Shown: positions 9,017 through 57,168 of the stretch, one piece after another
Layout of the letters: the number at the start of each line of letters is the position of its first letter
Numbering within the stretch: position 1 is the first letter of the stretch
Assembly (NCBI GenBank): GCA_965262115.1
Contig: OZ253496.1
Coordinates: forward strand, 1,088,001 to 1,152,000
Direction: 5' to 3'
Source of the DNA: Nitrospinales bacterium
Lineage (GTDB): Bacteria > Nitrospinota > Nitrospinia > Nitrospinales > VA-1
Length of the DNA: 64,000 nucleotides
The notes under the pieces: model-generated
Told to the model about the DNA's origin: nothing
Seen by the model: only the letters and a program-made list of their open reading frames with translations
Database searches by the model: none
Program-made: the position numbers and the translations under genes

Positions 9017-9056
9017 GTTATGCCCTCTTCATTAGCTTTTATGCCTCGAAGGGGTA
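9017..9056 (-). repeat. 40-nt element copy
   Basis: Reverse complement TACCCCTTCGAGGCATAAAAGCTAATGAAGAGGGCATAAC; sits in the loop of ATACCCCT/AGGGGTAT. Confidence 0.7.
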
Positions 9057-9434
9057 GGAGGGGTATTAGTGGGTGGGTATCTTCACAAGTCCACCAACTC
9101 TTGTCAAGACGAATCCCAAAAGGCAAAAAACATTGCCCCGCTTCTCCCGGACCCCTATAACCCCCAACAAATCAACCCGTCAGAATTCCACCAAAACCTT
9201 TATTATTAAGGTTTTAATTGATTTTCAGCCGTTATGAGCATTAGACTCTTTTCGTCAGGAGCACCCTTTTCCGGTGCCGGTAAAAAAGCGGAGAGTCTCC
9301 ATAAACACCATTGAGCCTGTAACAAAAATATTGTACGCCCAGTAGAGGAAATCTATGAAAGCAGCCGTTTGTAATGTTGTCATCCTCAAGGAGCCGAAGG
9401 ATCTCAAAGTCCCTCATCAATCAAAAGGCTAGAT

Positions 9435-9472
9435 TACTCGTTCCGGGCACGAAAGCTTAAGTGAAACATCAT
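9435..9472 (+). repeat. 40-nt element copy within a degenerate GTCAT...ATGAC REP pair
   Basis: TACTCGTTCCGGGCACGAAAGCTTAAGTGAAACATCAT. Confidence 0.65.
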
Positions 9473-9549
9473 GTCTTCACTTTGTTCAGAATGACGTCCG
9501 AAAATAGTTTTTCAGTACCCTGCTGGTACTCAGAAATGTCAAAAACTGG

Positions 9550-9873
9550 ATGATCCGTCTGACCCTTGAGAATTTGGATGGGAAGGCACGGGTCGATCTA
9601 CCGGGACAGGATGTTTCCGCCAAAGATATGGAGGATATGGACCGACTGAATCAAACCTATTCTTACGGTACGGGATTCTTTTCAGCCGAATCAATTGCCA
9701 CCGACTTGATAGAAAAACTCAGGGGCGAACACTACGATCTGGTCCCGGTTACCACCAACCACCCGCAAGGTTACCAGAATGTTCTGGAAGTTGCGCAAAT
9801 GATTCTGCCCGAAGAAATTTTATATATCTATCCCGAAGGCCACCTGCAACCTGTCTCGCCTGTAGCAATTTAA
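9550..9873 (+). CDS. Hypothetical protein
   Basis: 107-aa ORF with protein-like composition filling an intergenic gap. Confidence 0.6.
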   Translation: MIRLTLENLDGKARVDLPGQDVSAKDMEDMDRLNQTYSYGTGFFSAESIATDLIEKLRGEHYDLVPVTTNHPQGYQNVLEVAQMILPEEILYIYPEGHLQPVSPVAI

Positions 9874-9895
9874 CACCTGGAAAAAATACTACGTA

Positions 9896-11068
9896 TCAAG
9901 ACGATTTGGATTCCGCCTGAGGAAGGTTGGGTTTGGGATTGATCATATCTTTCTTACTGAGAATGTCGATGAGGTTTTTATCCCGGCAGGCGACGGCAAT
10001 ATCGATCAATCCATCGCCATTAAAATCCGCCACTGCCATGCCCTGGGGATGCTCATCGACCCGATGGTAAATAGGAGGATAGGTGAAGGTTCCGTTTCCC
10101 CTGCCAAGGGAAACACTAATCATGTCATCGGTGGCATTGGAGACGGCTATATCCTCAAAACCATCACCGGTAAAATCGGCAGCCACGACATATTTCGGAA
10201 AATTCCCCGAAGCAAAATCCCGCAATGAATCGAAAGTCTTATCACCTTTGTTTATAAGCGTGGTCAGAGCATGCAGAGAGTTGCTGGAAGTCACAAATTC
10301 CTTCAACCCGTCATTGTTCACATCCAGGCTGACAATGGTGAGGGGCTGTTTCCCGCCTTTAAAGACTTTTGAGCTTTCAAATTTTCCATCGCCCTTGCCC
10401 CAGAGAACCTGAACACCGGTAAATGCATTGCCCGCCAAAGCTACAGCGATATCTGTCTTTCCATCCTGATTGTAATCGTCGACAACAACTCCTGTCGGCT
10501 GCCCCTTGACAGGCATGGAATCCGGATCAGAAAAAACCCCATTGCCTTTCCCCAGCATCACAACCACATTCGAAAAGCGCATGGTGATCACCAGGTCAAT
10601 TCTCCCGTCAGAATTAAAATCTCCAGATGACATGTTGATGGGAATTTTTCCTGGCTTAAGCACTTGGCTGGTTTTTTGGAAACTTCCCAACCGCGTGTTC
10701 AAAAAAATCTGGATGGTCTGGTCAGCATAATTGAGCACTGCAATATCTGTGTAACCGTCTTCATTGAAATCTCCCGAAACCAGACAAATCGGGTCTCTAC
10801 CGGTTCTATAAACAAGCTGATCCCTGAAAGTCCCATCGCCCATTCCCTTAAAAAAATAAAAAGAATCCCCGCCAGTATTGGTCACAACCAAATCCGGAAC
10901 TTTGTCGCGGTTAAAATCATCGGTAATGAGAAAAGAAGGTTCTTTTCCCGTATCCATGGAATAGCTCAAGGCAAAAATGCGGGGCATTTTTTTCCGGGCC
11001 TTGGGAGGAGGACACCCCAGCAGGACAAAAACCATCAGGAACGCAATTATTGAATAATGTTTTTTCAT
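9896..11068 (-). CDS. FG-GAP/VCBS repeat lipoprotein (beta-propeller)
   Basis: Lipobox LLGC; about 7 DFNxDGxxDIAV repeats. Confidence 0.9.
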   Translation of the reverse strand: MKKHYSIIAFLMVFVLLGCPPPKARKKMPRIFALSYSMDTGKEPSFLITDDFNRDKVPDLVVTNTGGDSFYFFKGMGDGTFRDQLVYRTGRDPICLVSGDFNEDGYTDIAVLNYADQTIQIFLNTRLGSFQKTSQVLKPGKIPINMSSGDFNSDGRIDLVITMRFSNVVVMLGKGNGVFSDPDSMPVKGQPTGVVVDDYNQDGKTDIAVALAGNAFTGVQVLWGKGDGKFESSKVFKGGKQPLTIVSLDVNNDGLKEFVTSSNSLHALTTLINKGDKTFDSLRDFASGNFPKYVVAADFTGDGFEDIAVSNATDDMISVSLGRGNGTFTYPPIYHRVDEHPQGMAVADFNGDGLIDIAVACRDKNLIDILSKKDMINPKPNLPQAESKSS

Positions 11069-11769
11069 GAAGCTCCGTTGAAAAAAAGGAGAGTACCACA
11101 GGAACCCTGGGGAAACAATGTTACACAGCCGGGCTGGGAAAGCAGAAAAGCATGGATCGTGAGACCCATGCTTTGCATGAACTCCTCTCCAGGATAAAGA
11201 CGCGTGATCACCGTATTCAAAAAGTCCGGTTGCCGGTATGGGGTGCCCTGCTCAAAGATTCTGCAAGTTCCATCATTGAGGCCAAAAGCCCCTGCCACAA
11301 CCGCGCTCTTGATGTTTTCGCCCTCGCTGTAAATAAGCACTCCGTCAGGGTTGACTTCAATCGCCGTCACGCGGTTATGAACCACTTGGGCACCAGCCTT
11401 CTGAGCCTCTTCGAGCATGAAGGCATCAAATTTGGAACGTTTCACAGAAGCCGACCGGCCATGCTCTTCCCCGACCAAATCCGGGCTCAACAAATCAGAA
11501 TGCAGGCAATAACCCTCAATTTCATTGAGCGCCAGACTTTCCGGTAAAGCCAGATCCAATTCATTTTTAAGGATGTCCTAGAAAGGCGGAGAGAGCACGC
11601 CAATATACTGATTATAGTGACGCTGCTCTGCGAATTTTTTATGCTCGAGCAACACCACATTTATTTCCCTGCTCAACCGTCTGGCTTCTCTTAAGAGAGT
11701 CATAGCACAGGCCGATCCGCCGGGGCCTCCCCCAACAATACAAACTGTATCTCCATCATTAATGAGCAT
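11065..11769 (-). pseudogene. FAD-dependent oxidoreductase (geranylgeranyl-reductase-like), disrupted
   Basis: IVGGGPGGS Rossmann start; in-frame TAG at 11578-11580; R.KFD.F.LE.A...GA continues in the same frame; C-terminal half missing. Confidence 0.75.
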
Positions 11770-11786
11770 CAGGTCTTTATCCTGTT

Positions 11787-13319
11787 TTAATCCGGGATCG
11801 CTTGCAGACTTTTTTTCCTGAAAAACTCCAGCATTCCCTTAAAAATATAGGAGTGGAAGGTTGACATAGCCACCCAGTAAAGTTTTCCCCAAAAAGGTTT
11901 GGGAATGAAATGCGCCTTCAACGTCAAACGGGTTCCCCCGTTCTGATCCGGATCGAGCTGGAACTCGAGCCAGGACAGGCCCGGAGTGATCATTTCTGCC
12001 CTCAACAGCAGTCCGCGGTTGAGTTCCAGCTTTTCCACTCTCCAGAAATCTACCGAATCCCCAACGCGAAGATTGGCCGGGTCGCGCCGACCTCGTTGCA
12101 ATCCCACTCCCCCCAGGAGTCGGTCAATGAGACCGCGAATTCCCCAAAGGATGTTGGCGTGGTTCCAGCCATGCTTGCCCCCGATCTGACAAATCACCGG
12201 GAATACCTGCTCCGGAGTCGCCGGAATATCTATTCCATGTTCGTCAATGACGAACTCGGAAGCCTCAAACTGATACAGAGGCAAAAGGTCACTCATATTT
12301 TCAGGCGGAACATCACTCCAATGCGAAAATACTCTCGAGCTTTTTTCTTTCTCCTGAGCCCATTTTACGGCTGTTATAAAATCCAGCGGTTCGAAGGGAA
12401 GAATGGTTGAGATTTCGTTATCCACACACACCACGTCAGTTTTAAGGCTGCTCAGTAAAAGCGAAGTAATATTTACCGGAATGGAAATAAAACAATGAAG
12501 CCAGTAAGCATAAAGTCGGCACATCCAGTCAACAGGAATGGGCACCCAGGAAACATCAATGAAACGGATCAGCCGATTCAAGATTTTAGCAAAACGTAAA
12601 ATCATTTCCTTATAGGGCAATACATCCTTGCCACCGATTTGGAAAACACGTGACTCCAGGCCCGGAGTTTCCATAATACCGACCAGATATTTGACGACAT
12701 CCCGGATCGCGACAGGCTGGCAGATGGAATTGAACTCCGGTAAAAAAGGAATGAAACGGTTGTTCAAAGTCAGCGATTTCATCAATTCATAAGACGCGCT
12801 TCCAGCACCAACGATAATGGCCGCCCGAACCTGGATGGTCGGAACACTGCCCTGTGACAATATATTCCCGACCTCCATTCTGCTTCTAAGGTGCGGCGAC
12901 ATGCGATCATCTTTTTCTCCCAGTCCGCCCAGGTAGATGACCCGTTTCACGCCATGGTGTTCAGCCGATTCCCGGAAGTTTTTTGCGGCCTGCTGGTCGT
13001 TTATTATAAACTCCTCCTTTTTCAACCTCATGCTGTGAATTAAATAATATGCATAGTCAACATCCTTCAAGGCGGGGAGCAACTCTTCCCTGTTCAGGCA
13101 ATCGGCATAAACATGTTCGACGCGAGGATGCGTCAATAGTGTCGGGCAACTGATATTTCTGTACATACACCGGACAATATAGCCTCTTGAAACCAGTTCA
13201 GGAATTAACCTGTGCGCCACATACCCGGTTGCCCCGGTCACAAGAACCCGTGTTCCTTCTGGCCAGGGGCAGGTGTGAAGATCATCACAATAGTGGTAAT
13301 TGACTTTTTCCGGATCCAT
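11787..13319 (-). CDS. NAD(P)-binding SDR-like protein with C-terminal DUF2867 (YbjT-like)
   Basis: VLVTGATGY, YYLIHSM, HLRSR.EVG, GGVGL.RGRR, GD.VDFWRVE. Confidence 0.88.
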   Translation of the reverse strand: MDPEKVNYHYCDDLHTCPWPEGTRVLVTGATGYVAHRLIPELVSRGYIVRCMYRNISCPTLLTHPRVEHVYADCLNREELLPALKDVDYAYYLIHSMRLKKEEFIINDQQAAKNFRESAEHHGVKRVIYLGGLGEKDDRMSPHLRSRMEVGNILSQGSVPTIQVRAAIIVGAGSASYELMKSLTLNNRFIPFLPEFNSICQPVAIRDVVKYLVGIMETPGLESRVFQIGGKDVLPYKEMILRFAKILNRLIRFIDVSWVPIPVDWMCRLYAYWLHCFISIPVNITSLLLSSLKTDVVCVDNEISTILPFEPLDFITAVKWAQEKEKSSRVFSHWSDVPPENMSDLLPLYQFEASEFVIDEHGIDIPATPEQVFPVICQIGGKHGWNHANILWGIRGLIDRLLGGVGLQRGRRDPANLRVGDSVDFWRVEKLELNRGLLLRAEMITPGLSWLEFQLDPDQNGGTRLTLKAHFIPKPFWGKLYWVAMSTFHSYIFKGMLEFFRKKSLQAIPD

Positions 13320-13353
13320 ACCTGAAATATATCCCCAACCGCCGAATTCGCAA

Positions 13354-13525
13354 GCCCCCGGCGTAGCCGCCGGTGGCAAATTGCAATGGATTTAAATTGC
13401 TTTCAACCGGTTAGCTCGGCTTAAAGAGGTGTTGTCCACTGGGTCCAGCGTCACGCAGGCAAAGCGAAAGAGATCATTCAGCCGAGACAACTCTTTGCTT
13501 GCTTAATAAAGCCATTGCCCTTTGG
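13354..13525. repeat. REP/REPIN-like long imperfect palindrome
   Basis: CCGGCG..CGCCGG hairpin plus GCAATGG/CCATTGC and CTCGGCT/AGCCGAG inverted arms; 13468-13523 matches 52304-52359 at 46/56. Confidence 0.6.
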
Positions 13526-13533
13526 CCCCGCTC

Positions 13534-14364
13534 CTAGCGGGAGAAAAAGGGGTTGTGGCGTTTTTCTTCGCCAACGGTGGTCGCAGGGCCATGGCCGGGG
13601 AAAAGGCGCGTGTGGTCTGGCAGAGTCAAAAGTCTTTGGGCGATGGAATCGTACAGCCCAGACCAGGAGGAGTTGGCGCGTCCCATGGAACCGGCGAAGA
13701 TGGCATCACCGGAGAAAACCGTGTCATGGATTTTATAGGACACTCCGCCTGAGGTGTGACCGGGCGTGAAAAGAACTTCTATATTTAACTGGCCCAGTTT
13801 TATTGATTCTCCATCCTTTAAAAACTTAAAGTCACGGCTGCCTGAGGGGCGAGGTTCTTTTTTATCAATCCAGGCGGGACAGTTATAGGTTTTATCCAGG
13901 AGTTCCAGTCCCCCGGCGTGGTCAAAGTGGGCATGGGTTAAAAGGATTTTTTCCGGGTGAAGTTTCAGCTCTTTGGCTTTCTTAATGATCGCCTCCGGAT
14001 TCCCTCCCGTATCAATCACCGCAGAGGTTTGTGTAGCCTTGCAAATTACCAGATAACATTTAACGGGATAGGTTCCGACAAACACATCCAGGCAGACCGT
14101 ATCGAAAGGGGCGGGATCCGGCTCAATAGGTTTGGGAGCCCAGGTCGCATTCGCGACCGCGATCAACGATGGAGCATGAAGGCCCAGAACTTCAGCAAGA
14201 TTTTTTAAGACACCCTCTTCCGGAACAAACTCATAACGCTCCATCCGGGAAATATCACCCACACTGATTCCCGAAGCATAAGCCAAGTCAGACTGGCGCC
14301 AGCTTTTGCCATCTCTGGCCTTTTCCAGTACGTCTCCCAATTCATCTTCCAAAGGTCCTGACAT
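13534..14364 (-). CDS. XRE-type HTH fused to an MBL-fold (glyoxalase II-like) hydrolase
   Basis: N-terminal QSDLA..SGIS...ISRMER helix-turn-helix; THAHFDH, TPGHT, FSGD and PGHGP motifs. Confidence 0.85.
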   Translation of the reverse strand: MSGPLEDELGDVLEKARDGKSWRQSDLAYASGISVGDISRMERYEFVPEEGVLKNLAEVLGLHAPSLIAVANATWAPKPIEPDPAPFDTVCLDVFVGTYPVKCYLVICKATQTSAVIDTGGNPEAIIKKAKELKLHPEKILLTHAHFDHAGGLELLDKTYNCPAWIDKKEPRPSGSRDFKFLKDGESIKLGQLNIEVLFTPGHTSGGVSYKIHDTVFSGDAIFAGSMGRANSSWSGLYDSIAQRLLTLPDHTRLFPGHGPATTVGEEKRHNPFFSR

Positions 14365-14420
14365 AAAACCTCCTATTGGGAAATTATACTAGAAATTTTG
14401 CCAAATCAAACAAGCTTCCA

Positions 14421-15251
14421 TCAACCTTCTTTCTGTTCAGCCGGCTTCAGTTCCTTCCACTGAGTATCCTCACTTGAGGAGGCTGGCCCGGCTGAGGAAA
14501 ATACATAAACCATCCCCACCATGACTCCCCCACCCACCATATTTCCGAGTGTCACAAACACCTGATTGTGAAAGAAACCTGTAAGTGATACTTCCGCTCC
14601 ATGCGGCAGCAACAATGCCAGGCTCATCAGCGACTGGTTGGCGATACTGTGTTCGTATCCACTACCAATAAAAGCAAACAGGCACCAGAATATCATGATC
14701 AGTTTGGCAGTCTCGTCCCCGTTTCGGTTGGCGATCCAGACCGCCAGACACACCAGCCAGTTACACAAAATACCCCTGAAAAAAGCTTCTTGCGCACCGA
14801 GGGCCATTTTCGCTCCTGCTACTTTGACAATCAGGGCCTGAGCTTCGGCAGACAGGCTTCCCCCCTGCACCACCAGCCACGCAAAAAATACAGAACCCAG
14901 AAGATTACCGATAAAACATAGCGCGAACAATTTGAATATGGCGTTGAAACCTACCCGGTTTTTCAGTTTACCCACGGCAAAAACCATGTTATTGCCAGTG
15001 AACAGTTCCGAACCGGAAAAAACAACCAGGCTCAAAGCCACACCAAAACTAGCACCCATGATCAGTTTCATGAAGGGTGCAAACTGCGTTCCCGCCAAGG
15101 GAGCCCCTACCGAGAAAATTAAAACAATGCCAAAGCCTAGATAGGCCCCAGCCAGGGCAGACAGAGCCAGGTATCCCGGAGGGAAACGGTTCATGGCCTT
15201 GATTTTCTTTTCTGCGGCAAAAGCCAGTTTTCCTAAATCATTTTCGAACAT
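14421..15251 (-). CDS. nirC: Formate/nitrite transporter
   Basis: GSELFTGN, GILCNWLVCLA and GYEHSIAN motifs; directly downstream of nirA. Confidence 0.9.
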   Translation of the reverse strand: MFENDLGKLAFAAEKKIKAMNRFPPGYLALSALAGAYLGFGIVLIFSVGAPLAGTQFAPFMKLIMGASFGVALSLVVFSGSELFTGNNMVFAVGKLKNRVGFNAIFKLFALCFIGNLLGSVFFAWLVVQGGSLSAEAQALIVKVAGAKMALGAQEAFFRGILCNWLVCLAVWIANRNGDETAKLIMIFWCLFAFIGSGYEHSIANQSLMSLALLLPHGAEVSLTGFFHNQVFVTLGNMVGGGVMVGMVYVFSSAGPASSSEDTQWKELKPAEQKEG

Positions 15252-15279
15252 TTCAGGTTTCCTTTCTATCAGTCAATTT

Positions 15280-16872
15280 CTAATGCGTGGTTTTTATTTC
15301 TTCCAGCACATTAGTTTCTGTTTGCTTTTGCGGTTTCGTTAGCAAAGGCGTGTCACGTCTTCTTGCATATTTTTTTCCCTTGATCGGGTACATTCTTTCG
15401 CGAGTGTGGTAGGGAACCACGAATTCCAAAACCTGTGCCAACTGATCACAGGGAACATCTTCCATGACCTTTACGGACAGTTTGGGATCAATTCCCGTTC
15501 GGCCGCCCATAAAAATATCCACCCCCTCAATCACTTCATTGCCGCGGCGCATCTTTTTTCCGAGCAGTCCAATATCCGCCACCAGATGGTTGCCGCATCC
15601 CGCCGGGCATCCCGACCAATGCATATTGATCGGTGCGGTGCCCGGGAGCTTGCCTTCAAGTTGCGCGGCAACCTTTAAAGCCATCGACTTGGTTTCAATT
15701 ACCGCCAAGTTGCAATAATCGCTTCCCACACAACTCACCAATCCCTTAAGAATACTGGAAGGGTGATAAGTGAACTCTTTGACCAACGCCTCTTCAAGCA
15801 TGTCCCCCAATTTCTGATCGGAAATATTGGGAATGATCAGGGAATTGGAATGGGAAAATCGTATTTCTCCGTTTCCATATTTTTCCGCAAGTCGGGCCAG
15901 CCCCTGCAACTTGTCAGCCTGAATACGTCCGACGGGAACCTTCAGCCCGACATAGTTCATCAAGGTCTGCTTCTGCCGGTAGGAACCAATATGTTCCGAT
16001 TTTTCGTTGCCTCTCAAATCCACGCCAGCGGAGGTCAACGGCCTTCCCAGCCTCTCTTCCAACGCCAAACGGAATTTCTCTTCCCCCCAATCTTCTATCA
16101 GAAAGGCCAGACGGTTTTTACTTCTCACATCTCGACTGCCGTGGTCGCGGTACAAAAGGATCAGCGCCGAACACACTTCGACCACTTCTTCGGGACGGAG
16201 GAAAACATCCAAAGGAGTGGCGATGCGGTAGCCCCCCGACCCCAACTTTCCACCCACCAGAACATTGAAACCATAAACCGGGCCGTTTTCTTCAATGGCC
16301 GGTACCAGCGCCAGGTCCTGGGTTTCCGCATGCACACAGTCATCCGGGCAACCACTCAATGTTATGTTGAACTTTCTTGGCAGATTGGAAAACTCCGGGT
16401 TGCCGACGATATGCTCGTTCAATGCCTTGACCAGCGAATAGGCATCGACCTTCTCCTTCGGATTCAAACCTGCTACCGGACATCCCATAATGTTGCGGAC
16501 ATTGTCCATTCCGGTTTGGGACGAGGTCAGTCCTACCTCTTCGAGCAGGTCGAAAACCTTGGGAATGCTTTCAATTTTTAGATGCCGTAATTGCACCTGT
16601 TGGCGGGTGGTGATGTCAATCATCCCATTACCGAAGGTAGCGGCTATAAACGAAAGAGCCCTGACCTGATGAGAAAAAGAAAGTCCATTAGGAATCCTCA
16701 CCCGCAACATAAAAAATCCTGGAGTGGGATTGCGCAAAAACAGTCCATACCATTTGAGACGCTGGATGTCCTCTTCGCTGATAGACTCCCAACCTTCTTT
16801 CGCAAAACGATGGAGTTCGCTTTTGATTTTCAAACCGTCTCTTTCAGATTTTATCAGTTCTATTTTGTTCAT
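15280..16872 (-). CDS. nirA: Ferredoxin-nitrite reductase (siroheme)
   Basis: LKWYGLF, TTRQ, GMDNVRN, LPRKFN, C.G..YC and SGCPAGC siroheme/[4Fe-4S] ligands. Confidence 0.92.
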   Translation of the reverse strand: MNKIELIKSERDGLKIKSELHRFAKEGWESISEEDIQRLKWYGLFLRNPTPGFFMLRVRIPNGLSFSHQVRALSFIAATFGNGMIDITTRQQVQLRHLKIESIPKVFDLLEEVGLTSSQTGMDNVRNIMGCPVAGLNPKEKVDAYSLVKALNEHIVGNPEFSNLPRKFNITLSGCPDDCVHAETQDLALVPAIEENGPVYGFNVLVGGKLGSGGYRIATPLDVFLRPEEVVEVCSALILLYRDHGSRDVRSKNRLAFLIEDWGEEKFRLALEERLGRPLTSAGVDLRGNEKSEHIGSYRQKQTLMNYVGLKVPVGRIQADKLQGLARLAEKYGNGEIRFSHSNSLIIPNISDQKLGDMLEEALVKEFTYHPSSILKGLVSCVGSDYCNLAVIETKSMALKVAAQLEGKLPGTAPINMHWSGCPAGCGNHLVADIGLLGKKMRRGNEVIEGVDIFMGGRTGIDPKLSVKVMEDVPCDQLAQVLEFVVPYHTRERMYPIKGKKYARRRDTPLLTKPQKQTETNVLEEIKTTH

Positions 16873-16929
16873 GGTTCCTCAACATTAGAAAATGATAGAC
16901 CTTTCCCATCGAAGGTATACAGAAGGCAG

Positions 16930-16945
16930 TACAATTAACGTGCCA
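16930..16945 (-). promoter_or_regulatory. Putative sigma-54 (-24/-12) promoter of nirA
   Basis: Minus strand TGGCACGTTAATTGTA: GG-N10-GT, about 60 nt upstream of the ATG. Confidence 0.55.
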
Positions 16946-17095
16946 TTTAGGAAAAATGGTCACTATGGCTTTTATTGATATAAGGTTAGGTCGATGGAGA
17001 CATTAATTTGTGGCAAGACAAATTGCTCAAAAAACAATCAAAGCAATTTTCTACTGCCATATAATGTGTCATCTGGAAATGCCTGAAAATGCCGT

Positions 17096-19064: not shown

Positions 19065-19193
19065 GAGACCTTTGCGTAAGTCTATAAAGCAGAAAAGCGA
19101 GATGCTTCGACAAGCTCAGCATGACAATAAAAGGCTATCTTGTCATTCTGAGGAGCTATTGCAACGAAGAATCTTGGGTTATGCAAAGGTCTC
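19065..19193. mobile_element. MITE copy 2 (129 bp)
   Basis: GAGACCTTTGCGTAA...TTATGCAAAGGTCTC with a perfect 9-bp duplication CCTATTTCC. Confidence 0.9.
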
Positions 19194-23518: not shown

Positions 23519-23558
23519 TGTAATAATTCCATCATCGACTTCATGCCCCGTAGGGGTA
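23519..23558 (-). repeat. 40-nt element copy, filled site
   Basis: Reverse complement TACCCCTACGGGGCATGAAGTCGATGATGGAATTATTACA; empty homologous site at 13357-13387. Confidence 0.8.
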
Positions 23559-30922: not shown

Positions 30923-30953
30923 TTTCTATTCCACCTGGCCTCGCCCGGTGGAC

Positions 30954-31073
30954 GTGATATTTGTGATGTCCTTTTCGTTAAACTTCATGCCCGGCACGGG
31001 TACTTCCTAAGCTCTTACCCGTTCCGGGCATGAAGGCAAGTGTTGGATATGCCACATGTGCCCCGCAGAGGTA
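30954..31073. repeat. Three nested 40-nt element copies
   Basis: Copies at 30963-31002 (-) and 31016-31055 (+) interrupt a third (-) copy whose pieces sum to 40 nt. Confidence 0.75.
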
Positions 31074-48193: not shown

Positions 48194-48271
48194 CCGATTT
48201 AAAGGGAATATTGTGCGCAGTAAAAGGGTTTTTGCAGGGTGTAGAACGGAGATTTTGTCTACGGAGATGAA

Positions 48272-48526: not shown

Positions 48527-48615
48527 TGAGGCCATCATTTATCAATATAGCCATGTTAGGTATGAGGAAAGATTGAAAAGAGGCTGATGGCGTAAGCCAT
48601 TACCCATTGATAAAT

Positions 48616-48691
<76 letters not shown>

Positions 48692-48748
48692 TCACTATTC
48701 GTCTGGATGGAAATACCGGGCCATTCTACCTAATCTGGTTCGATCTGG

Positions 48749-49078
48749 CTAGCCAAATATCCGTACCAACGCATGGTACTGCATCGCACTGATCGTTGCC
48801 GACAATCCACCCGCGATCAACGACAAAAATAAGAATTGATAGGCCTTGTCTTTATCTTCACGCATTTCCACGATATCGATCAGGAACGATATGAAGAGCA
48901 GCCCCAAAAATATCACCTTGGCCACATCCGGGAGAATGGATTCTGCCGCTTGCGCCGCCCCAGCCTGGAGGACCACCGCGCGCTCCTGAAAAATCCCGAT
49001 GCCATAGAGCCCCATCAGCATAAATGCCCAGACCTGCCGCAGGAGTATTTTTGTCTCATCCAGATTGATGCCAGCCAC
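48749..49078 (-). CDS. Hypothetical membrane protein
   Basis: Three TM segments; GAGG RBS before the GTG start. Confidence 0.65.
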   Translation of the reverse strand: MAGINLDETKILLRQVWAFMLMGLYGIGIFQERAVVLQAGAAQAAESILPDVAKVIFLGLLFISFLIDIVEMREDKDKAYQFLFLSLIAGGLSATISAMQYHALVRIFG

Positions 49079-49343
49079 AAAACCTCTTAGAAATCAGTAT
49101 TAAAAATGTTTGCACCCTCTGTAAGCAGGGATCATCTAATAAGGTACCTTAATAGACATAGCCAATAAGGGGTGACTTCCAACGGGTTTGCGGTCGTTTT
49201 CCCCAGCTTCAGCTATGCTATAATTGCACCCGTTTCCAACGTCTTTTAAAGAACATGTTCACGGCCCCCGGTTTTGGGGTTGTTCGGATAGTATAGGAAA
49301 GCACTTTCATTAATTATAATCTTTTTTGAGAAGGAAGCAGATT

Positions 49344-49979
49344 ATGGCTATAAGATTAGGAGATACCGCACCGGATTTCACAGCAGAAACCACCGAGGGC
49401 ACCATTGAGCTGCATAAATACCTGGGCGACGGCTGGGGGGTTTTGTTTTCCCATCCCAAAGACTACACCCCGGTTTGTACTACGGAACTGGGCCGGGTGG
49501 CCAATCTGAAAAGTGAATTTGACAAACGCAATGTCAAGGTTCTTGCCTTGAGCGTAGACCCTGTGGATTCGCACAAGGGATGGATCAATGACATTAACGA
49601 GACACAAGGTTGCACGGTGAATTACCCCATCATTGCCGACCCGGATAAAAAAATCGCTGAACTGTATGACATGATTCATCCGAATGCACTGAACAACCTG
49701 ACCGTTCGATCTGTATTCATCATCGGGCCTGACAAAAAAGTCAAGTTGACGATCACCTACCCCGCTTCAACGGGTAGAAACTTTGCTGAGATTCTGCGTG
49801 TTATCGATTCACTGCAACTCACCGCCAATTATCAGGTCGCCACACCGGTCGACTGGAAACATGGCGATGACTGCGTGGTCGTTCCCGCAATCAAGACGGA
49901 AGATATTCCCGCAAAGTTCCCCAAGGGACACAAAGTGATCAAACCCTATTTGCGCACCACACCGCAACCTGACCTGTAG
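49344..49979 (+). CDS. 1-Cys peroxiredoxin (Prx6)
   Basis: FSHP.DYTPVCTTE, YPASTGRNF.E and ATPVDW. Confidence 0.95.
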   Translation: MAIRLGDTAPDFTAETTEGTIELHKYLGDGWGVLFSHPKDYTPVCTTELGRVANLKSEFDKRNVKVLALSVDPVDSHKGWINDINETQGCTVNYPIIADPDKKIAELYDMIHPNALNNLTVRSVFIIGPDKKVKLTITYPASTGRNFAEILRVIDSLQLTANYQVATPVDWKHGDDCVVVPAIKTEDIPAKFPKGHKVIKPYLRTTPQPDL

Positions 49980-50000
49980 ACGGTTTTGATTTCCAGCATG

Positions 50001-50030
50001 GCCGGGCAGAAATGCCCGGCTTTGTTTTTT
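50001..50030 (+). terminator. Rho-independent terminator
   Basis: GCCGGGCA-GAAA-TGCCCGGC followed by TTTGTTTTTT. Confidence 0.8.
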
Positions 50031-50035
50031 ATGCC

Positions 50036-50926
50036 ATGAGCAATCAAAAGGCCTTGGGCCAAATTTCATACTTGATCCAATTGTTGACCGACCGGGACGA
50101 ATTCGTCCGGGAAAAGGTTCGCCTGCAGTTGATCGAACTGGGGGAAGACACCTTACCCTTTCTGGAAATGGCGGCCCGCAGCGAAGATGCCCCTCTCCGA
50201 GTTCAGGCGCAGGAAGTGATCCGCGCGATTTTTCCAAAAAAGCTGGGGGAAAAGTTCCGGCAATTGACACAAAAAGGACTGGGTCGGGATGTCAACCTGG
50301 AAACAGGAATGCTGTTGATCATGGAATTTGGTTATCCTGATTTTGATCCTGAAGCCTGCAGGGAAAACCTTGATTCCCTGGCACACCAGCTGGAGCAGAA
50401 CCTCGCTCCAGATACTAATCCTTCCCAAACCATTTCCGCATTGACCCGCCTACTTTTCCAACAGGAAAATTTCAGGGGCAACCAGAAAAATTATCTGGAT
50501 CCGGACAACAGTTATCTCAACAAGGTTCTGGAACATAAAACTGGTTTACCCATCACCCTTTCAGCCCTCTGTGTACTGGTTGCGGACCGACTGGGTTTGC
50601 CAATCGTTGGCGTGGGCCTTCCGGGCCATTACATTGCAAAATACAATCTTCCGCAAAACGCGATTTATTTCGATCCGTTCCATCAGGGCCGCCTGCTGAC
50701 CCGCGCGGACTGTATTCAAATTGTTGAACAATTTGGCCAACCTTTTGAAGAACATTTCCTGTCTCAGTCCACGCACCGGGAAACGCTGATCCGAATGATG
50801 AATAATCTGGTTCAGGTGTATCAGAGCTCTAATGAGCCGGAAAAAGCCGCGACCTTATCGGGGTATATCAAGATTCTGTTGAATCCTTCTAAAAATCCCT
50901 TTTCAGAAAACACCCAGGGAATATAA
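50036..50926 (+). CDS. SirB1/YchA-family transglutaminase-like protein with HEAT-like N-terminus
   Basis: F.GN...Y.DPDNSYL..VL....G.PITL, G.G.PGHY, RMMNNL. Confidence 0.85.
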   Translation: MSNQKALGQISYLIQLLTDRDEFVREKVRLQLIELGEDTLPFLEMAARSEDAPLRVQAQEVIRAIFPKKLGEKFRQLTQKGLGRDVNLETGMLLIMEFGYPDFDPEACRENLDSLAHQLEQNLAPDTNPSQTISALTRLLFQQENFRGNQKNYLDPDNSYLNKVLEHKTGLPITLSALCVLVADRLGLPIVGVGLPGHYIAKYNLPQNAIYFDPFHQGRLLTRADCIQIVEQFGQPFEEHFLSQSTHRETLIRMMNNLVQVYQSSNEPEKAATLSGYIKILLNPSKNPFSENTQGI

Positions 50927-51664
50927 ATGCATATTGTTATTTCAGGAGCCGGTTCGGGGATCGGCAGAAGTATTGCTGAAACTCTGGCAGAGCGTGGATA
51001 CTCTCTTATTCTGTTAGGACGCAATCTGGAAAATCTGGAAACCACAAAAAGTTTATTGAAAAACTCCGGACAGCACCAATGCCACACCTGTGATATCAGA
51101 AACTCCGGAGAAATCAGAAAGGCCCTGGCAAATGTTTCTTCTCTATATGCACTCGTCGCCAACGCCGGTATTGGAGGTGAAAACCAATATGCAGACCAGG
51201 ATCGCTGGCAAGAAATTGTTGACACCAACCTGACCGGAACTTATCAGACCATTCAGGAATGCCTTCCCTTTATTAAAAAGGATTCCGCACCGTTCAAAAA
51301 AATTATTATCATCTCATCCATTCTGGCAAGGTTAGGGGTTCCGGGCTATTCCGCGTCTAAAGCGGGGTTGCTGGGGCTCACCCGATCTCTGGCAGCAGAG
51401 TACAGCGGCGATAGAATTCTGGTGAATGCCTTGTGTCCTGGTTGGGTCGATACCGAAATGGCGCAGGAAGGCTTAGAGGGATTTGCCGACGCATTGAAGG
51501 TTTCCAAAGATGAGGCCTATAAAGAAGCTATGAAGCAGGTGCCATTGGGCAAGATGTCCAAACCCGAATAAGTCGCCCAACTGGTTGCCTATCTGGTTTC
51601 TGCAGAACAAACTTCCTTCACTGGGCAAACTCTAGACATAAACAACGGCGCCCTCATGCCCTAA
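50927..51664 (+). pseudogene. SDR oxidoreductase with an in-frame TAA
   Basis: SGAGSGIG, NAGI, YSASK; TAA at 51569-51571 followed in frame by VAQLVAYLVS....FTGQTLDINNG. Confidence 0.8.
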
Positions 51665-51727
51665 ATACCTCAAAGCCAAATAACCCCTCCCCTAAGAAAA
51701 CAATTTCTTACCCATCTTCCTTAAACG

Positions 51728-52255
51728 CTACAGACTCCTCAGGCGAGGATTGTTTTGATCCTTTTCAGAGAGAACGGGATCTGATATCGGCCAGTCAATC
51801 CCAATATCTGGATCGTTCCAGATAATTCCTTTTTCTTTTTCTGCTGAATAGTATTCAGAAACTTTATACAAAAACTCCGCCGTATTACTGAGCACACAAA
51901 ACCCGTGGGCAAAGCCTGCCGGGATATAAAGCTGAAGATAGCTGACCTCCGACAAAATAAAACTCTGCCATTTGCCAAAAGTGGCAGAGCTTTTTCTGAT
52001 ATCCACGACCACATCAAACACTTCACCTTTAACCACTCTGACCAGCTTGGCCTGTTCAGGGTCAACGCGATAGTGGAGCCCCCTTAAAACATTTTTATTG
52101 GAGAGAGATTGGTTATCCTGAACGAATTCTTCCTGGATTCCCAACGCGCGGTATTTTTCCTTTTCATAACTCTCAAAAAACCGCCCCCGGGAATCAAGGT
52201 GAACAGCGGGCTCAATGAGCAAAACCCCTTCAAGTTCAATTTGGTGGGCTTTCAA
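51728..52255 (-). CDS. rfbC: dTDP-4-dehydrorhamnose 3,5-epimerase
   Basis: DSRG.FFE, QDN.S.S, RGLH, QAKLV, GFAHGF. Confidence 0.95.
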   Translation of the reverse strand: MKAHQIELEGVLLIEPAVHLDSRGRFFESYEKEKYRALGIQEEFVQDNQSLSNKNVLRGLHYRVDPEQAKLVRVVKGEVFDVVVDIRKSSATFGKWQSFILSEVSYLQLYIPAGFAHGFCVLSNTAEFLYKVSEYYSAEKEKGIIWNDPDIGIDWPISDPVLSEKDQNNPRLRSL

Positions 52256-52399
52256 AATTTCTCCTGTACAAAAAGTTACCCCTTGGCAGGGAAGGCCGGT
52301 TGCAAGAGATCACCAAGCCGAGACAAATCTTTGCCAGCCCAATAAAACCATTGCTCTTTACCACCGGGCGTTGCCCGGCGCCGAGTGGCCCCTTAGCAG

Positions 52400-52568
52400 G
52401 AGAGCTTTGCATAACCCAAGATTCTTCGTTGCAATAGCTCCTCAGAATGACAAAATGGCCCAGTATTGTCATGCTGAGCTAGTGAATATTCGACCTTTGC
52501 CTTCTTGCCCCGTAGGGGTATCTCGAAGCATCTCGATTCTTCGATTTTTTGACTTATGCAAAGGTCTC
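52400..52568. mobile_element. MITE copy 3 (169 bp, opposite orientation) carrying a 40-nt insertion at 52481-52520
   Basis: Same terminal repeats; perfect 9-bp duplication CCTTAGCAG; exactly 40 nt longer than copy 2. Confidence 0.9.
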
Positions 52569-52864
52569 CCTTAGCAGGGGAAGCAAAAAGAACTTGCCTC
52601 ATTAGCCGTCAATAATTCCCGCCTGCCAGCAAACTTTATTGCACGCTGGCCCCACGCCGAGTGGGCGGAGAACCTCCGCAGGTAACTGGTAATAGCGGTT
52701 AAATGCGCTCTGAAAGTGTGGGGTAGCTATAGAATGTTTGCTCGTTGGCCCCACGCCTAGTGGATTATATAACGCAATTCAGGGCTTAGCAAACAACATT
52801 GAAGATGGGAAACGCCTCTGTTAATATCAGGTTTTACCTTGAAACCTTTTAAGCAAAGCTTCGA

Positions 52865-53593
52865 ATGAGAATAATACCAGCAGTAGATATAAAAGAAGGA
52901 AGGTGTGTGCGCCTTGCTCAGGGAAAAGCGGACCAGGAAACCGTTTATTCTAATGATCCCGTCTCGATGGCCAATCATTGGGATGAAGAAGGGGCGCAGA
53001 CTATTCACGTTGTAGACCTTGATGGCGCCTTCCAGGGCTCACCCATCAACGCTGAAATTGTAAAAAACATTATCTACAGCAGCTCTGTAGATATACAAGT
53101 CGGAGGGGGAATCCGAACTCTTGAAACCATCGAAGCGTATGTTAAAGCTGGCGCATACCGGATTATTTTGGGCACTGTTGCTCAGAAGGAACCGGAGTTT
53201 GTGGAAGAGGCTTGTCGACGTTTCCCCGATAAAATTATTGTCGGCATTGATGCCCGGGACGGTTTAGTGGCTGTGAAAGGTTGGGTGGAAGTTTCAGAGC
53301 AAAAAGCCACCGACCTCGCCCAGAAAATGAAGGGCTATGGAATTGCCGGGTTTATCTTCACCGATATCAGCCGCGACGGCATGCTTCAGGGTCCTAACCT
53401 GGAAAGCATCAAAGAGTTTGCCGAGTCCGCGCAATTACCCGTGATCGCGTCAGGGGGAGTGAGCCGTCTGGAAGACATCACAAACCTGGCCAAGCTGGAG
53501 TCCTATGGTGTTGAAGGCGTGATCATTGGTAAAGCCCTATACGACAAAACCCTTTCCTTCAAGGAGGCGCGAGACGTTCTTCATGCTGGCTAA
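52865..53593 (+). CDS. hisA: ProFAR isomerase
   Basis: IIPAVD...[29 protein letters not shown]. Confidence 0.96.
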
Positions 53594-54428
53594 ACGCATC
53601 ATACCCTGTCTGGATGTCAAAGATGGCCGCGTGGTCAAGGGGGTCAACTTTGTCAATCTCCGCGATGCCGGCGACCCGGTTGAAATCGCTTCTGCCTACG
53701 AACTGGAAGGTGCCGACGAACTCACCTTTTTAGACATCACCGCTTCACACGAAAAACGCGATATTATTCTGGATGTGGTCGCCCGCACTGCCGAAAAGGT
53801 GTTCATGCCTTTGACAGTTGGCGGAGGCGTACGCACTCTGGATGATATTCGAAATCTTTTGAAAGCCGGCGCTGATAAAGTCGCCATCAACACTGCCGCC
53901 GTTAAGGACCCGGATTTCGTACAACGCGCGGCAAAACGTTTTGGCAGTCAATGCATTGTTGTCGCCATTGATGCCAAAGAGGTACAATCTTCCCGGTCTC
54001 AACCTATACATCCCGAATGGGCTTTAGAGCATCCGGAACTGTTACTGGAGCAATCCGATTCATCTCCCGCCTGGGAAGTCTACACGCATGGAGGAAGAAA
54101 CCCGACCGGAATTCATGTTCAAAGATGGGCTCAAAAAATGGACTCTTATGGAGCAGGAGAAATTTTGCTCACCAGCATGGACCGCGATGGCACCAAAGCC
54201 GGGTACGATATCGAACTCAACAAAACGGTTTCAGAATCGGTCACCATTCCCGTTATCGCTTCAGGAGGAGCGGGAACCCTTGAGCACTTATATGAAGGTA
54301 TTGTAAAAGGAAAAGCCTCCGCCGTGCTGGCCGCTTCCATTTTTCACTTTAAGGAATTTACTATTCAGGAAACCAAGGCTTACCTGCAATCCAAAGGTGT
54401 GACGGTCAGACCCGGGCAACCTGCTTGA
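53583..54428 (+). CDS. hisF: Imidazole glycerol phosphate synthase cyclase subunit
   Basis: [40 protein letters not shown]. Confidence 0.97.
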
Positions 54429-55359
54429 CCCCACAGTGTTTCAACTCCAGGGTTTTGGATTTGCTGTCCAGAATCGCGGATGTCTCCAAAGGAAGGGTCC
54501 AGACCTCTTTTCCATGACCTATGGGACAGTGAGTCAAAATCGGGAATCCTGGTTTTGGAAAAAGGTCCGCAAGAATATCTTCAATCGCCCCGTCGCCATT
54601 GCGTTGCGGACGGCAGTTGACCATTTCCCCGAAAATTAACCCGCGCACTCCTTTAAACATCCCCGCATTTTTTAACTGCCACAGCATTCCATCAATCCGG
54701 TACAAAGGCTCGTTGACATCTTCTATCAATAAAATCCTGTTCCGGGTGTTAATTTCATAGGGGGTGTTTAATGAACGGCACAACAATGTCAAACAGCCCC
54801 CGGTAATTTTACCTTGAGCCACTCCTTGGGAAAACACCTTCGCCCTGGGAGAATGAAATACCTTGCCCTTGGCATCGCCGGTCAACAATGCCTTAAATTG
54901 TCGGCGTGACTTTTTCATTTCAGCCCGGCCAAAACTCCCGGCAATCATCGGGCCGTGAAACGCGACCAGCCCGCATTCTTGCACCAGAAAATGGAGTAGC
55001 AAGGTTATATCGCTGGACCCCACCACGACTTTTGCATGAGCTCTTATCTCATCAGGCTTAAGATGAGGGAGAACGCGATTAGCGCCATACCCCCCGCGGG
55101 CGCAAAAAATTGCCCGGACCTCGGGGTTTCTGAACATATCCATGAGATCCTGGGCTCGATCCTTATCGGGGCCAGCCATAAAACGGGAACGGGCATAAAT
55201 ATGCCTGCTCAACAAGGGCTCAAACCCCATGGTGCGGATCACTTCCAATCCGGTTTCCAACTGCCCCCTGTCCACTGGCCCGGCAGGGGCCACCACACCA
55301 ACAACATCTCCCTCTCTCAATGAGGGCGGCCGGATGATGGAACGAAGCGAATTCGACAT
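54406..55359 (-). CDS. ldcA: LD-carboxypeptidase (peptidase S66)
   Basis: ARGGYG, G.SDIT, IEDV.E and GH catalytic motifs. Confidence 0.88.
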
Positions 55360-55420
55360 TACAAATTACCTTTGAAGGATTACAATACCGGCCTCAATGA
55401 ACCTTATCCTTTATTGACAA

Positions 55421-55790
55421 ATGATTTCCGTCACCGCTATCATTCAAGCCGGAATGGGGCCTGCCCGGTTTCCCGGTAAAAGCCTGCGCCCGATTGCAGG
55501 CCTACCCTGCTGGAGCATATCATTATTCGTTTAAAACAGGTGCCGGAAATTGCCGGATTCATTGCGCAAGTCTCCCCCGCCATCTCTTGGCATAGAAAGG
55601 CAACCGGACTCCAGTTTGCTCACTCCTGCAATTTTCCCAAGACAGGTAGGGAATACCTATTGTCCGCAATGTCGGAAACTTCTGCTCGAAAGAATCGGGT
55701 TTCAGGTCTTAAGCCTTCATTTAAAAGGATACCGTTGCCCCTTCTGTAATGTTATGACGCCAAGCCGACGGGTTAATTTTGTTCATAAAA
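55421..55790 (+). pseudogene. Deletion-fused remnants: SpsF-like cytidylyltransferase N-terminus plus AmmeMemoRadiSam radical SAM C-terminus
   Basis: AIIQA.MG..RFPGK.L..IAG.P / LLEHII.RLK joined to EIAGFIA..SP.I.WH and NTYCPQC..LL.ER.GF....CPFC. Confidence 0.6.
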
Positions 55791-55907
55791 CACCATCCCG
55801 ATCATGGCCGTTGGTATAAAAGCAGCCTTCGGTACTATTTCTCGCGAAATTAACGTTCCTGAACAGTCTTTTAGCAATATCCAATTTAAACATTAAAAGA
55901 ACCCCTT

Positions 55908-56409
55908 ATGACTGAAGACCAAAAGAAAAAACTGGAACAACAGCTTTGGAATATCGCCAATACATCACTCAGGAGCAAAATTATCTGGATGCGGTGATCG
56001 GCCTGTCCGCCAATCTGTTTTACGGCACCAGCATTCCGGCCTGTATTCTGGTGTTCAAGAAATGCCGTGTGCATGACGACGATATTCTGTTCATTGACGC
56101 CAGCCAACATTTCGAGAAGGTCGGCAACCAGAACGCGCTGACCGATGACCACGTTGCAAAGATTGTCGAGACCTATCAGAACCGCGAGAACATCGACAAA
56201 TACGCCTATGCAGCACACCACTCTCTGAAGTCAAAGAAAACGACTATAACCTCAATATCCCGCGCTACGTGGATACGTTCGAGGAAGAGGAGCCGGTGGA
56301 TATCGAGGCGGTTGCGGCGGAGCTGAAATCACTGGAAGCAGATATGAAGGATACCGATGCAGCCATTGTCGGATTTTGCAAGGAGCTGAGCATTCCCGGC
56401 CCGTTTTAA
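55908..56409 (+). pseudogene. hsdM: Type I restriction-modification methyltransferase remnant, internally deleted
   Basis: MTEDQKKKLEQQLWNIAN joined to LDAVIGL.ANLFYGTSIP, FIDAS, and frameshifted YNLNI.RYVDTFEEEE. Confidence 0.85.
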
Positions 56410-56415
56410 TGAATC

Positions 56416-56910
56416 ATGAGCGATATGAAAAATAAAGAAGTTGCTATTTATCAGGCTGAAAGTGGCGCGATTCAATTGCGCTCGGATATTGTTGCGGAAA
56501 CGATATGGGCAACGCAAAAACAGATAGCTGATATATTTTGCGTAAAGATACCGGCGATTAGCAAGCACATTAAAAACATACTGGGAGAAAGCGAATTGGA
56601 CTATTCAACTATTTCCATTTTGGAAATAGTTCAACAGAAGGGTCAACGCGAGGTTAAGCGCGAAGTGGAGCATTATAACCTCGATATGCTTATCTCGATT
56701 GGCTATCGTGTTAACTCCAAAACCGCCACCAGATTTTGCCAATGGGCCACCCAAACCCTGAAGCAGCACATCACCCAGGGCTATACCCTTAACCAACATC
56801 TGCTGGATGAAAAACGCATCAGTGCCGAACAAATTATCAATAACACTCAGCAACTCTCGCAGGGCAATAGTCAAATACAGCCCGATGATGTGTTGGAACT
56901 GGTAAAAGCC
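56416..56910 (+). pseudogene. RhuM-family (RhuM-Fic) protein, N-terminal part
   Basis: ETIWATQKQIA.IF, I.KHIKNI, YNLD..ISIGYRVNS..AT.F..WA. Confidence 0.85.
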
Positions 56911-57129
56911 GGTAGAAGCTTGAAGTCCACTTCGCAGGACCCCTTGGCAGCGATGCAAACTCTGATCCTCAATCTCTCCGGGGCATGAATTGATCTTCCC
57001 CTCTCATGAGGGGAGGCAAGGCGTAGCCGCGGAGGGGTGTGGATTATTTTTACGGAATTCATAATCCAACCCTCCCCTAACCCCTCCCTATGAAGGGAGG
57101 GGGGATTTCTGCTTCCGCCTTTCTCAAAG

Positions 57130-57168
57130 TACCCCTGCGGGGCATGAAATTAATGTTGGGAATATCAC
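57130..57168 (+). repeat. 40-nt element copy
   Basis: TACCCCTGCGGGGCATGAAATTAATGTTGGGAATATCAC. Confidence 0.75.

Follow-up and report, generated by a model that had tools for sequence, protein, structure and literature searches.

A gene-less mobile unit of about 40 nucleotides that inserts exactly into hairpin repeats and its own copies in Nitrospinota

How can a repeat of some forty nucleotides that carries no gene enter other repeats without leaving a mark on either side? The question is raised by a 64,000-nucleotide (nt) stretch of a Nitrospinales bacterium (the window, G000:C1:1088001-1152000; the source genome, G000, is a single contig of 2.68 Mb from a marine member of the Nitrospinaceae whose proteins cluster with ones named Nitrospina, Nitrospinae or Nitrospinaceae), in which a first-pass annotation made from the letters alone had noticed at least eight intergenic copies of a short unit in or beside hairpin repeats. 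All of the listed copies exist, with ends that were off by about one base. The unit is real and mobile. As the annotation proposed, it is a minimal mobile unit of fixed length with asymmetric ends that enters hairpin repeats, transposable elements of the miniature inverted-repeat type (MITEs) and itself exactly. It is neither an ordinary repetitive extragenic palindromic (REP) element nor an ordinary MITE, single units being gained and lost exactly, without terminal inverted repeats or target duplication.

The unit has the consensus TACCCS-TNC-SGGGCA-N-GAA...ATCAC-N', carries no gene and is 39-41 nt long. Position by position it reads T1 A2 C3 C4 C5 S6, then T7 N8 C9, then S10 G11 G12 G13 C14 A15 N16 G17 A18 R19; a purine-rich stretch with some conserved positions follows, and then AYATCAC with one last base. 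Because this base after ATCAC belongs to the insert, the length first given as 38-40 nt is really 39-41 nt, while its fixedness stands. The second half, described as variable, proved semi-variable: G27, A31, A32, A34 and T35 are present in at least 90% of 87 aligned rows cut to 39 nt. In the window, seven motif matches compare with a chance expectation of 0.20, and none of 100 shuffles reaches seven. The source genome has 276 matches at up to one mismatch; 242 of them have the end motif, and a tabulation of their lengths, which the first-pass annotation had suggested, is narrow, with 229 of the 242 at 39-41 nt. The end motif stands at that distance from only 2% of random positions, and the 34 matches that lack it are mostly nested or truncated copies. 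A looser search of the same genome returned 305 units with both ends. Among 514 pooled unique units, 496 are 39-41 nt long in a search that admitted 38-42 nt only, the wider search of G000 being the one that gave 229 of 242.

The both-ends pattern occurs in 36 of 120 Nitrospinota genomes and 6 of 30 genera, nearly all in the family of the source genome, at 0 to 332 copies per genome; the reversed pattern, taken as a control, gave 0 matches. In a species collection (11 of 64 parts scanned), 79 of the 80 titled loci are Nitrospinota, and the remaining one, in a bin of another phylum with the same host repeats, may be a mis-binned contig. Four viral contigs also carry units, one of them six copies, and a plasmid collection yielded no match. 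At gathering score Rfam recognised three tRNAs only in the window, so that the check for a catalogued family matching the unit came back empty there. A reading of the unit as a mini open reading frame (ORF) was rejected: its third codon positions are conserved, and the 40-41-nt forms break the frame. Fold-back derivatives, in which the left half of the unit is followed by its own reverse complement, lie at G000:C1:898458, 1391199 and 1737978. A 50-kb temperate-phage contig, G120 (L451-L453), encodes an integrase, two DNA methylases and a Thoeris ThsB-like TIR gene, and its six units sit in chromosome-type host repeats.

Mobility is seen most directly at empty sites. The copy at 9016-9056 is present in the relatives G019 and G006 and exactly absent from the orthologous sites of G013 and G007, and the copy at 9435-9473 has an exact orthologous empty site in G013. 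The search for empty sites in sister genomes thus succeeded, and the claim that the unit leaves no target duplication is borne out at orthologous sites for two of the eight window copies (9016 and 9435). Comparison of the 52481 copy with the empty paralogous host at 19065-19193 is likewise exact, with one substitution 2 nt upstream, and a contig from run X7 has a 39-nt unit (A16 : T39) exactly between 19112 and 19113, at a locus that is possibly paralogous. Between ATCTT and CTCG of the insertion sequence (IS) IS3 of G000 lies a 41-nt unit that is missing from all four aligned IS3 of relatives. Paralogous empty sites at which both ends are unambiguous read AGAT^TCTT, GACA^AGCT, AAAG^AGGG, CTTT^CAGT and GAAA^AATA. 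The unit-target junctions have no duplication, deletion or shared core, and 546 flank-unit sets reduce to 87 non-tandem target clusters.

At 23519 there is no clean empty site, the copy being identical in G019 and diverged in place in G013, and the locus has a different sequence in G007 and G006; for 57130 no orthologue was found in relatives; and the composite at 30953-31073 is absent as a whole in five of five relatives. The 52481 unit reached its locus inside a 169-bp MITE with a 9-bp duplication, not by its own insertion; this MITE (52400-52568) is absent at the site in G019 and is skipped by contigs of runs X5, X6 and X7. The further suggestion that the units are excision scars fails because they were gained at previously empty sites, including the IS3 frameshift junction, and because no long, cargo-bearing version was found.

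The two ends of the unit are tied to each other by covariation. Mutual information over 141 flank families of G000 singles out two Watson-Crick pairs, 6:10 in the stem and base 16 with the terminal base. The latter is intact in 125 of the 141 families (in the states T:A, C:G and A:T), in 120/133 loci of relatives, 128/147 of the collection scan and 98/122 metagenome and viral loci; pooled, it is intact in 439 of the 514 unique units, against a mean of 234 and a maximum of 269 in shuffles, these unit sets overlapping in part. Five variable halves are each found, with identical sequence, in two different Watson-Crick states, an argument for repeated switching or for recombination. Pair counting in the 87-row alignment (two of whose rows end short of, or are mis-set at, the true unit end) gives 0.241 for the named structure, 0.087 when shuffled and at most 0.029 when slid. 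Both G17 and the next-to-last C are conserved. Because base 16 pairs with the terminal base, joining the ends rebuilds a hairpin, with an 8-bp stem, a GNA loop and the junction inside the stem, two pairs up from the foot; a head-to-tail junction of this kind is seen in the tandem array at G000 814859. On the GNA-loop strand the junction folds at -5.9 kcal/mol, compared with -3.8 kcal/mol without it. A rebuilt hairpin that is cut within its stem points to a single-stranded circular intermediate. The purine-rich half has no further covarying stem; the unit has one hairpin only.

Preferences among the targets are weak but genuine: over the 87 clusters, T stands at +2 in 3, C at +5 in 45, and A or T at both -3 and -2 in 45. 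No flank position covaries in Watson-Crick fashion with any position of the unit, and 132 rebuilt empty sites reveal no fixed structural position within the host hairpins. Which base stands at +2 varies with the last base of the unit: units ending in A are followed there by G or A, and those ending in G by C (p = 2e-8, resting on 284 junctions that are not independent). Hairpin variants, too, are associated with particular target sites; we could not account for either dependence by base pairing. When a unit enters another unit, it does so at offset 9, 20-21 or 30 if the two share an orientation and at 17 if they are opposed. Head-to-tail arrays occur too, and tandem pairs often carry the identical hairpin variant.

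How, then, does it move? We give about an even chance to the view that the gene-less unit travels as a circle of single-stranded DNA, with a strand-transfer enzyme provided from elsewhere doing the cutting and rejoining. A double-stranded circle of 39 bp is too small to form. The unit itself has fixed ends, inserts exactly and without a core into many unrelated targets, enters its own copies at discrete points, and covaries at 6:10 and at base 16 with its terminus; the remaining steps are drawn by analogy with IS608 and with the circle model for bacterial interspersed mosaic elements (BIMEs). On single-stranded DNA, pairing of bases 16-17 with the final two, stacked upon the terminal hairpin, would bring the ends together. 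Two single-strand cuts and an exchange would release the circle and reseal the donor. The circle junction would form the 8-bp stem with its GNA loop, to be cut two pairs above the stem base, and a reverse exchange into a loosely preferred single-stranded target (A or T at -3 and -2, not T at +2, C at +5) would produce an exact insertion. The chemistry that would fit best is a phosphotyrosine (HUH-type) transfer in trans, as in IS200/IS605 and TnpA-REP, by an enzyme that may be a rare visitor, may have been lost, or may lie outside the recognised families searched. Once inserted, many copies are passively multiplied by the MITE, by CGTC REPs and by the IS3, and their hairpin is targeted by an IS110. 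IS608 is established to form single-strand circles without duplicating its target, and the same has been proposed for BIMEs (PMC3333891, PMC8266576).

Several observations weigh against this view. The circle is read from covariation at the junction and was not itself observed, and the covariation counts are not independent events because units are kin. The pair between base 16 and the terminus is broken in 75 of 514 units. Which strand folds is ambiguous: the GNA loop and the near-invariance of A2 and C14 speak for the one ending GGGTA-3', but T16 is combined with a terminal G in 49 units and C16 with a terminal A in just 11, and this speaks for the other strand. The helix that pairs the ends has no more than 2 bp, and entire circles fold at about 0 kcal/mol in ViennaRNA, so that a protein would have to hold the circle. 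Across the 87 clusters there is no conserved 4-5-nt target in the style of IS608. A guide in the variable half was tried and rejected, identity and complementarity to the flanks not rising above shuffles; the IS608 guide rule would match GAAG with TCAC on paper, yet base 20 is G in just 58%. IS200/IS605 elements prefer the lagging-strand template, and the units split 130/261 between replichores, without bias, although passive copying and rearrangement could hide one.

The search for an enzyme belongs on the same side of the balance. PF01797 was not found in G000, G013 and G007 (94-98% complete, with about 200, 320 and 90 exact motif matches), and tblastn for a Y1 remnant in G000 with 12 HUH proteins of relatives returned C-terminal helix-turn-helix matches only. 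PF04986 and PF07282 were not found in G000, G013, G007 and G019. Across five unit-rich genomes each of these two families has one match, both in G069, where the IS91 match is a broken fragment without unit ends. PF01797 is present in 7 of 22 genus relatives and three of five other relatives, and units flank none of 11 Y1 loci in relatives. The HUH/Y1 enzyme of the type of REP-associated tyrosine transposases (RAYT) that the first-pass annotation had listed therefore stays as a chemical analogy, with no PF01797 gene in the three genomes and no flanked locus behind it. PF00589 has four ordinary matches. PF01541 has seven; the Ssn-like among them go with CGTC REPs. In G000, the ORFs that have units or repeats on their flanks are housekeeping or IS genes only, no long version with cargo was found whose halves flank a transposase or recombinase gene, and no candidate enzyme lies near the units in the window, as had been noted. 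Pfam scans of 32 of the 67 ORFs of the G120 phage contig revealed an integrase, methylases and a terminase, with no HUH protein, reverse transcriptase (RT) or transposase. Altogether, no moving enzyme was found in the families searched, the whole proteome, serine recombinases, Cas1, relaxases and Rep proteins being unscanned.

Candidates for a long autonomous form were rejected: seven orphan left and five orphan right ends in G000 have no cargo, nor do 31 orphan left ends in metagenome and viral loci, many of which are chance matches in GC-rich DNA. In a single case, on metagenome contig L344:1960-2120(-), a unit lies inside the remnant of the start of a Y1 transposase gene. Ssn-like GIY-YIG genes form several clades across Nitrospinaceae (G000:C1:2573200-2573538, which is L113; L454-L473), each clade being bracketed by its own type of CGTC REP.

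Copy number overstates the number of insertion events, because many units ride as passengers in the MITE, in REPs and in the IS3. The dense unit clusters of relatives are, where read, tandem expansions of hosts. In G007, L091:5470-6130 and 7130-7500 are long tandem arrays of a half-REP and a unit with a period of about 100 nt, and G013 has similar ones. The host MITE family of 57 copies has the ends GAGA(C/G)CTTTGC and carries CGTC REPs; no autonomous partner was identified for it, the DDE element at L015 having other ends. The most striking passenger is that of the IS3 (for example G000:C1:411121-412410, with 16 further copies): all 17 orfB copies in G000 are preceded by a unit end, just after the frameshift motif. 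Uninterrupted, the junction would be a canonical fusion by -1 frameshift; the unit brings a stop into the -1 frame and leaves orfB in the other one. No further intact IS3 transposase came up in a tblastn search of G000. The element has nonetheless spread recently; its copies are 99-100% identical, two composite ones have 3-bp duplications, and ten also hold an IS110 within their unit. We take as a hint, not as evidence, that the IS3 spread by the transposase of a since-lost intact copy, or that the unit is exactly removable.

It is tempting to go further, although we think it doubtful as a whole, and to picture the unit as close to the smallest possible single-stranded circular intermediate, with ends set by its own pairs, whose scarless insertion at low specificity and exact removal by an undescribed enzyme would make it a reversible off-switch in host elements such as the 17 IS3 copies. 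If that were true, a circle of 39-41 nt would be about as small as a transposition intermediate can be.

One other explanation does without a dedicated transposase. It is unlikely, though worth weighing, that single-strand nucleases tied to repeats (Ssn-type GIY-YIG, DUF559), together with host ligase or repair, let a self-splinted fragment of 39-41 nt be ligated into a break. Ssn-like genes are present in G000, G013, G007, G019, G022, G018, G008, G105 and G069, and none turned up in G009 and G017, which are free of units, but homologues also occur in the unit-free G024, G081, G094 and G097 and were not found in the unit-rich G012, G004, G070 and G071. Most units do lie in repeats, and many of these are of the CGTC type found beside Ssn genes; units also sit in non-CGTC hosts and in the IS3 coding junction, while the Ssn genes are flanked by CGTC REPs of their own, with a unit match in 7 of 18 parsed loci (20 were fetched). 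The cut that SsnA makes in single-stranded DNA has a fixed position next to a hairpin (PMC11893778), and such a route would explain the absence of a Y1 gene, but a nuclease alone leaves exact, lossless junctions unexplained. We consider it more improbable still that the unit is transcribed with its host, brought end to end by folding, excised as a small RNA and copied back by an RT acting in trans. Pairing of an end with an internal segment is also a feature of self-splicing introns, and removal at the RNA level would allow the 17 of 17 frame-broken orfB copies to be 99-100% identical. Against this stand the sole PF00078 match in G000, an RT that is broken and lies within the low-GC, gene-poor first 100 kb, the absence of an orientation bias relative to transcription in G000 (87 vs 90), the finding of tRNAs alone by Rfam in the window, and the reputation of GNA triloops as stable loops of DNA rather than RNA. 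G000:C1:1-100000 has low GC, few genes, no tRNAs, no units and long repeats, and is probably DNA of another organism joined to the contig.

The resident, IS621-like IS110 has a closer bond to the unit, and the first-pass annotation had listed an IS110-type enzyme among its possible movers; its bridge recombinase might make or move the unit, as a scar or by half-match recombination. The protein has 316 aa with DEDD and Transposase_20 domains and 24 domain matches in G000 (for example L011:500-1790, G000:C1:120299-121589, with about 23 further copies). In that genome 26 of 26 right ends of the IS110 run on into the right arm of the unit, and 23 of 24 left ends are preceded by the left arm; excision of IS621 as a single-strand circle with half-match insertion has been reported (bioRxiv 10.64898/2026.08.31.748434). 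The crossover, however, is a CT core at unit bases 6-7, away from the unit ends, and 15 different unit halves lie downstream, so the IS110 entered existing units. The left non-coding end folds with an internal loop bearing UUUACCCCU and UCCCGAAG, which on the model of PMC11208160 are the predicted left and right target guides of a bridge RNA and match the unit hairpin; the donor junction is unrelated to the unit junction, and unit junctions share no core with their targets. Full-length DEDD domains were not found in G019 and G069, which have 109 and 96 unit copies, and G013 and G007 have only a broken or distant copy. The unit is thus the target of IS110 and not its product; as its maker, IS110 is largely refuted and in our estimate very improbable. 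Least credible of all is that the unit is an ordinary immobile REP-like repeat, spread only as a passenger of MITEs, REP doublets (REPINs) or ISs and reshuffled by recombination. In G000, 30 of the 57 host MITE copies carry units and 36 have the 9-bp duplication, and the IS3 and tandem host arrays multiply units, tandem pairs often sharing a hairpin variant. Exact gain and loss of the unit alone at orthologous sites, the 87 target clusters and self-insertion at fixed offsets refute this account for the origin of insertions, although it holds for part of the copy number. The probability that remains belongs to mechanisms we did not consider.

Two further observations concern the IS110. A homologue in G016 has a guide for the CTCC loop variant, its own insertion site lying beyond the contig end. 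Several IS110 copies have swapped flanks, suggesting rearrangements between copies.

A unit that works like a non-autonomous single-strand transposon has few obvious kin, and the nearest kind are very small mobile repeats without an enzyme. The small dispersed repeats (SDR1-8) of Nostoc and relatives, in the account attributed to Elhai et al. (2008), are reportedly about 21-27 nt long. They are said to nest in their own copies and in mini-transposons, with a structure backed by compensatory changes. Like the unit, SDRs are very small and gene-less, insert precisely and have no known enzyme, and nesting is shared. The unit differs in being 39-41 nt rather than the reported 21-27 nt or so, in belonging to another phylum, in its loose target preference where SDRs have HIP1, and in the terminal and inner base pair that rebuilds a hairpin at the junction, a feature that SDRs are not known to share. 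SDR5 inserts between bases 3 and 4 of HIP1 (PMC4390886, a citing paper), and SDRs are also cited in PMC5861425 and PMC2884548. The SMRs of Haloquadratum walsbyi, which have neither target duplication nor transposase and enter palindromes of mobile elements by a mobilisation called 'enigmatic' (PMC3119063), are the other near kin; SMR-A and SMR-B are 80-110 bp (SMR-A about 110 bp) with inverted terminal repeats, whereas the unit is half that size and without inverted repeats.

On the tested features the unit falls outside the better-known classes. PATEs have no inverted ends and a near-terminal palindrome, and derive from IS605-type ends with palindromes near both termini (PMC3119063). With them and other non-autonomous IS200/IS605 elements the unit shares the lack of inverted ends and of target duplication, but it has one hairpin rather than one per end, no IS605 partner in G000 and no conserved 4-5-nt target chosen by a guide. 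REPs, BIMEs and REPINs resemble it in having a hairpin of 20-40 nt, hundreds of mostly intergenic copies, a role as IS110 target (PMC3116915, PMC3333891, PMC8266576, PMC6006769, PMC3733652) and a proposed single-stranded circle with strand transfer. The unit, in contrast to REP/RAYT systems, lacks a GTAG or CGTC tag at the hairpin foot, has TACCC at one end and ATCAC+N at the other, flanks no Y1 gene and has fixed ends, not scattered C|T cuts. For REPs, a singlet is described as what remains of a doublet and as immobile (PMC3116915), whereas here the single unit is mobile and needs no inverted partner as in REPINs. Unlike MITEs, including its host with the 9-bp duplication, it has no terminal inverted repeats or target duplication, and unlike an IS110 donor or scar it has no core dinucleotide repeated at its ends or shared with the target. 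IS621, whose insertions were scored against REP elements, is matched by the G000 IS110 in its CT core and hairpin-matching predicted guides (PMC11208160), a likeness that concerns the unit's parasite and not the unit. We found no description of the unit in Nitrospina in a literature search that left most subscription journals outside.

The movement of repeats shorter than 50 bases is an open problem, SDRs, SMRs and CGTC REPs all being without a known enzyme. The unit family has sharply defined ends, copies in the hundreds, empty sites at the level of strains and a base pair that predicts the shape of an intermediate and its cut site, and with these a defined 40-mer as substrate for an enzyme hunt. 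Scarless insertion of a short strand without core homology would be useful in genome editing. The nesting of IS110 in the unit, and of the unit in IS3 or MITE, amounts to a three-tier parasitism in which a bridge RNA is aimed at a mobile mini-element rather than a static REP.

The copies in the window illustrate most of these relations. The 41-nt unit at 9016-9056 (minus strand; T16 : terminal A) was inserted after base 9 of an older, degenerate unit at 8991-9065 (minus strand), which it splits and whose left limit is approximate and 3' half without the ATCAC end. This older unit runs into the start of the ftsY ORF (8039-9010), the ATG at 9010 being unit bases 15-17. It is kept at the ftsY start in G019, G013, G007 and G006, and members of the FtsY cluster have mostly 312-323 aa; a ribosome-binding site or codons for the N-terminus may come from its purine-rich half. 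A 39-nt unit at 9435-9473 (plus strand; C16 : terminal G) lies in a CGTC-type REP at AGAT^TCTT. The 40-nt unit at 23519-23558 (minus strand; T16 : A40) has a hairpin repeat on either side and lies where a methyltransferase gene ends. The composite consists of an outer 39-nt unit at 30953-31073 (minus strand; C16 : G39) that interruptions at its offsets 17 and 30 divide into the three pieces 31073-31057, 31015-31003 and 30961-30953. A 41-nt unit at 30962-31002 (minus strand; T16 : A41) occupies offset 30 in the same orientation, and another of 41 nt at 31016-31056 (plus strand; T16 : A41) occupies offset 17 in the opposite one. A similar composite stands at another place in G013 (L087).

The host MITE at 52400-52568, with the ends GAGAGCTTTGC...GCAAAGGTCTC and a 9-bp target duplication, carries as its passenger the 40-nt unit at 52481-52520 (minus strand; A16 : T40), at CGA(G/C)A^AGCTC of the MITE's inner REP. 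The MITE at 19065-19193, also with a 9-bp duplication, has neither of the usual unit sites filled and so provides an internal control for the filled copy at 52400. The degenerate half that had been placed at 56971-56989 is indeed a half copy, now corrected to 56971-56990 (plus strand) and read as a unit that is cut at 56991, where an inverted-repeat end of the IS3 type (TGATCTTCCCC) begins; the same truncation junction recurs at G000 410888 and 1427358. The 40-nt unit at 57130-57169 (plus strand) combines T16 with a terminal G, a non-Watson-Crick case.

Beyond it, a 1.1-kb stretch at 57235-58311 has a second copy elsewhere in G000, and near it are an N6-methylase fragment, a RhuM-family fragment and short tandem repeats; the ORFs at 57336-57872 (178 aa) and 58172-59158 (328 aa) have no Pfam match. 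Other short hairpin modules, several with TNC/GNA loops, occupy 13120-13500 and 52300-52760 and their orthologues, where they vary between relatives by indels of 79, 99, 44 and 33 nt; these modules may be sibling mini-elements.

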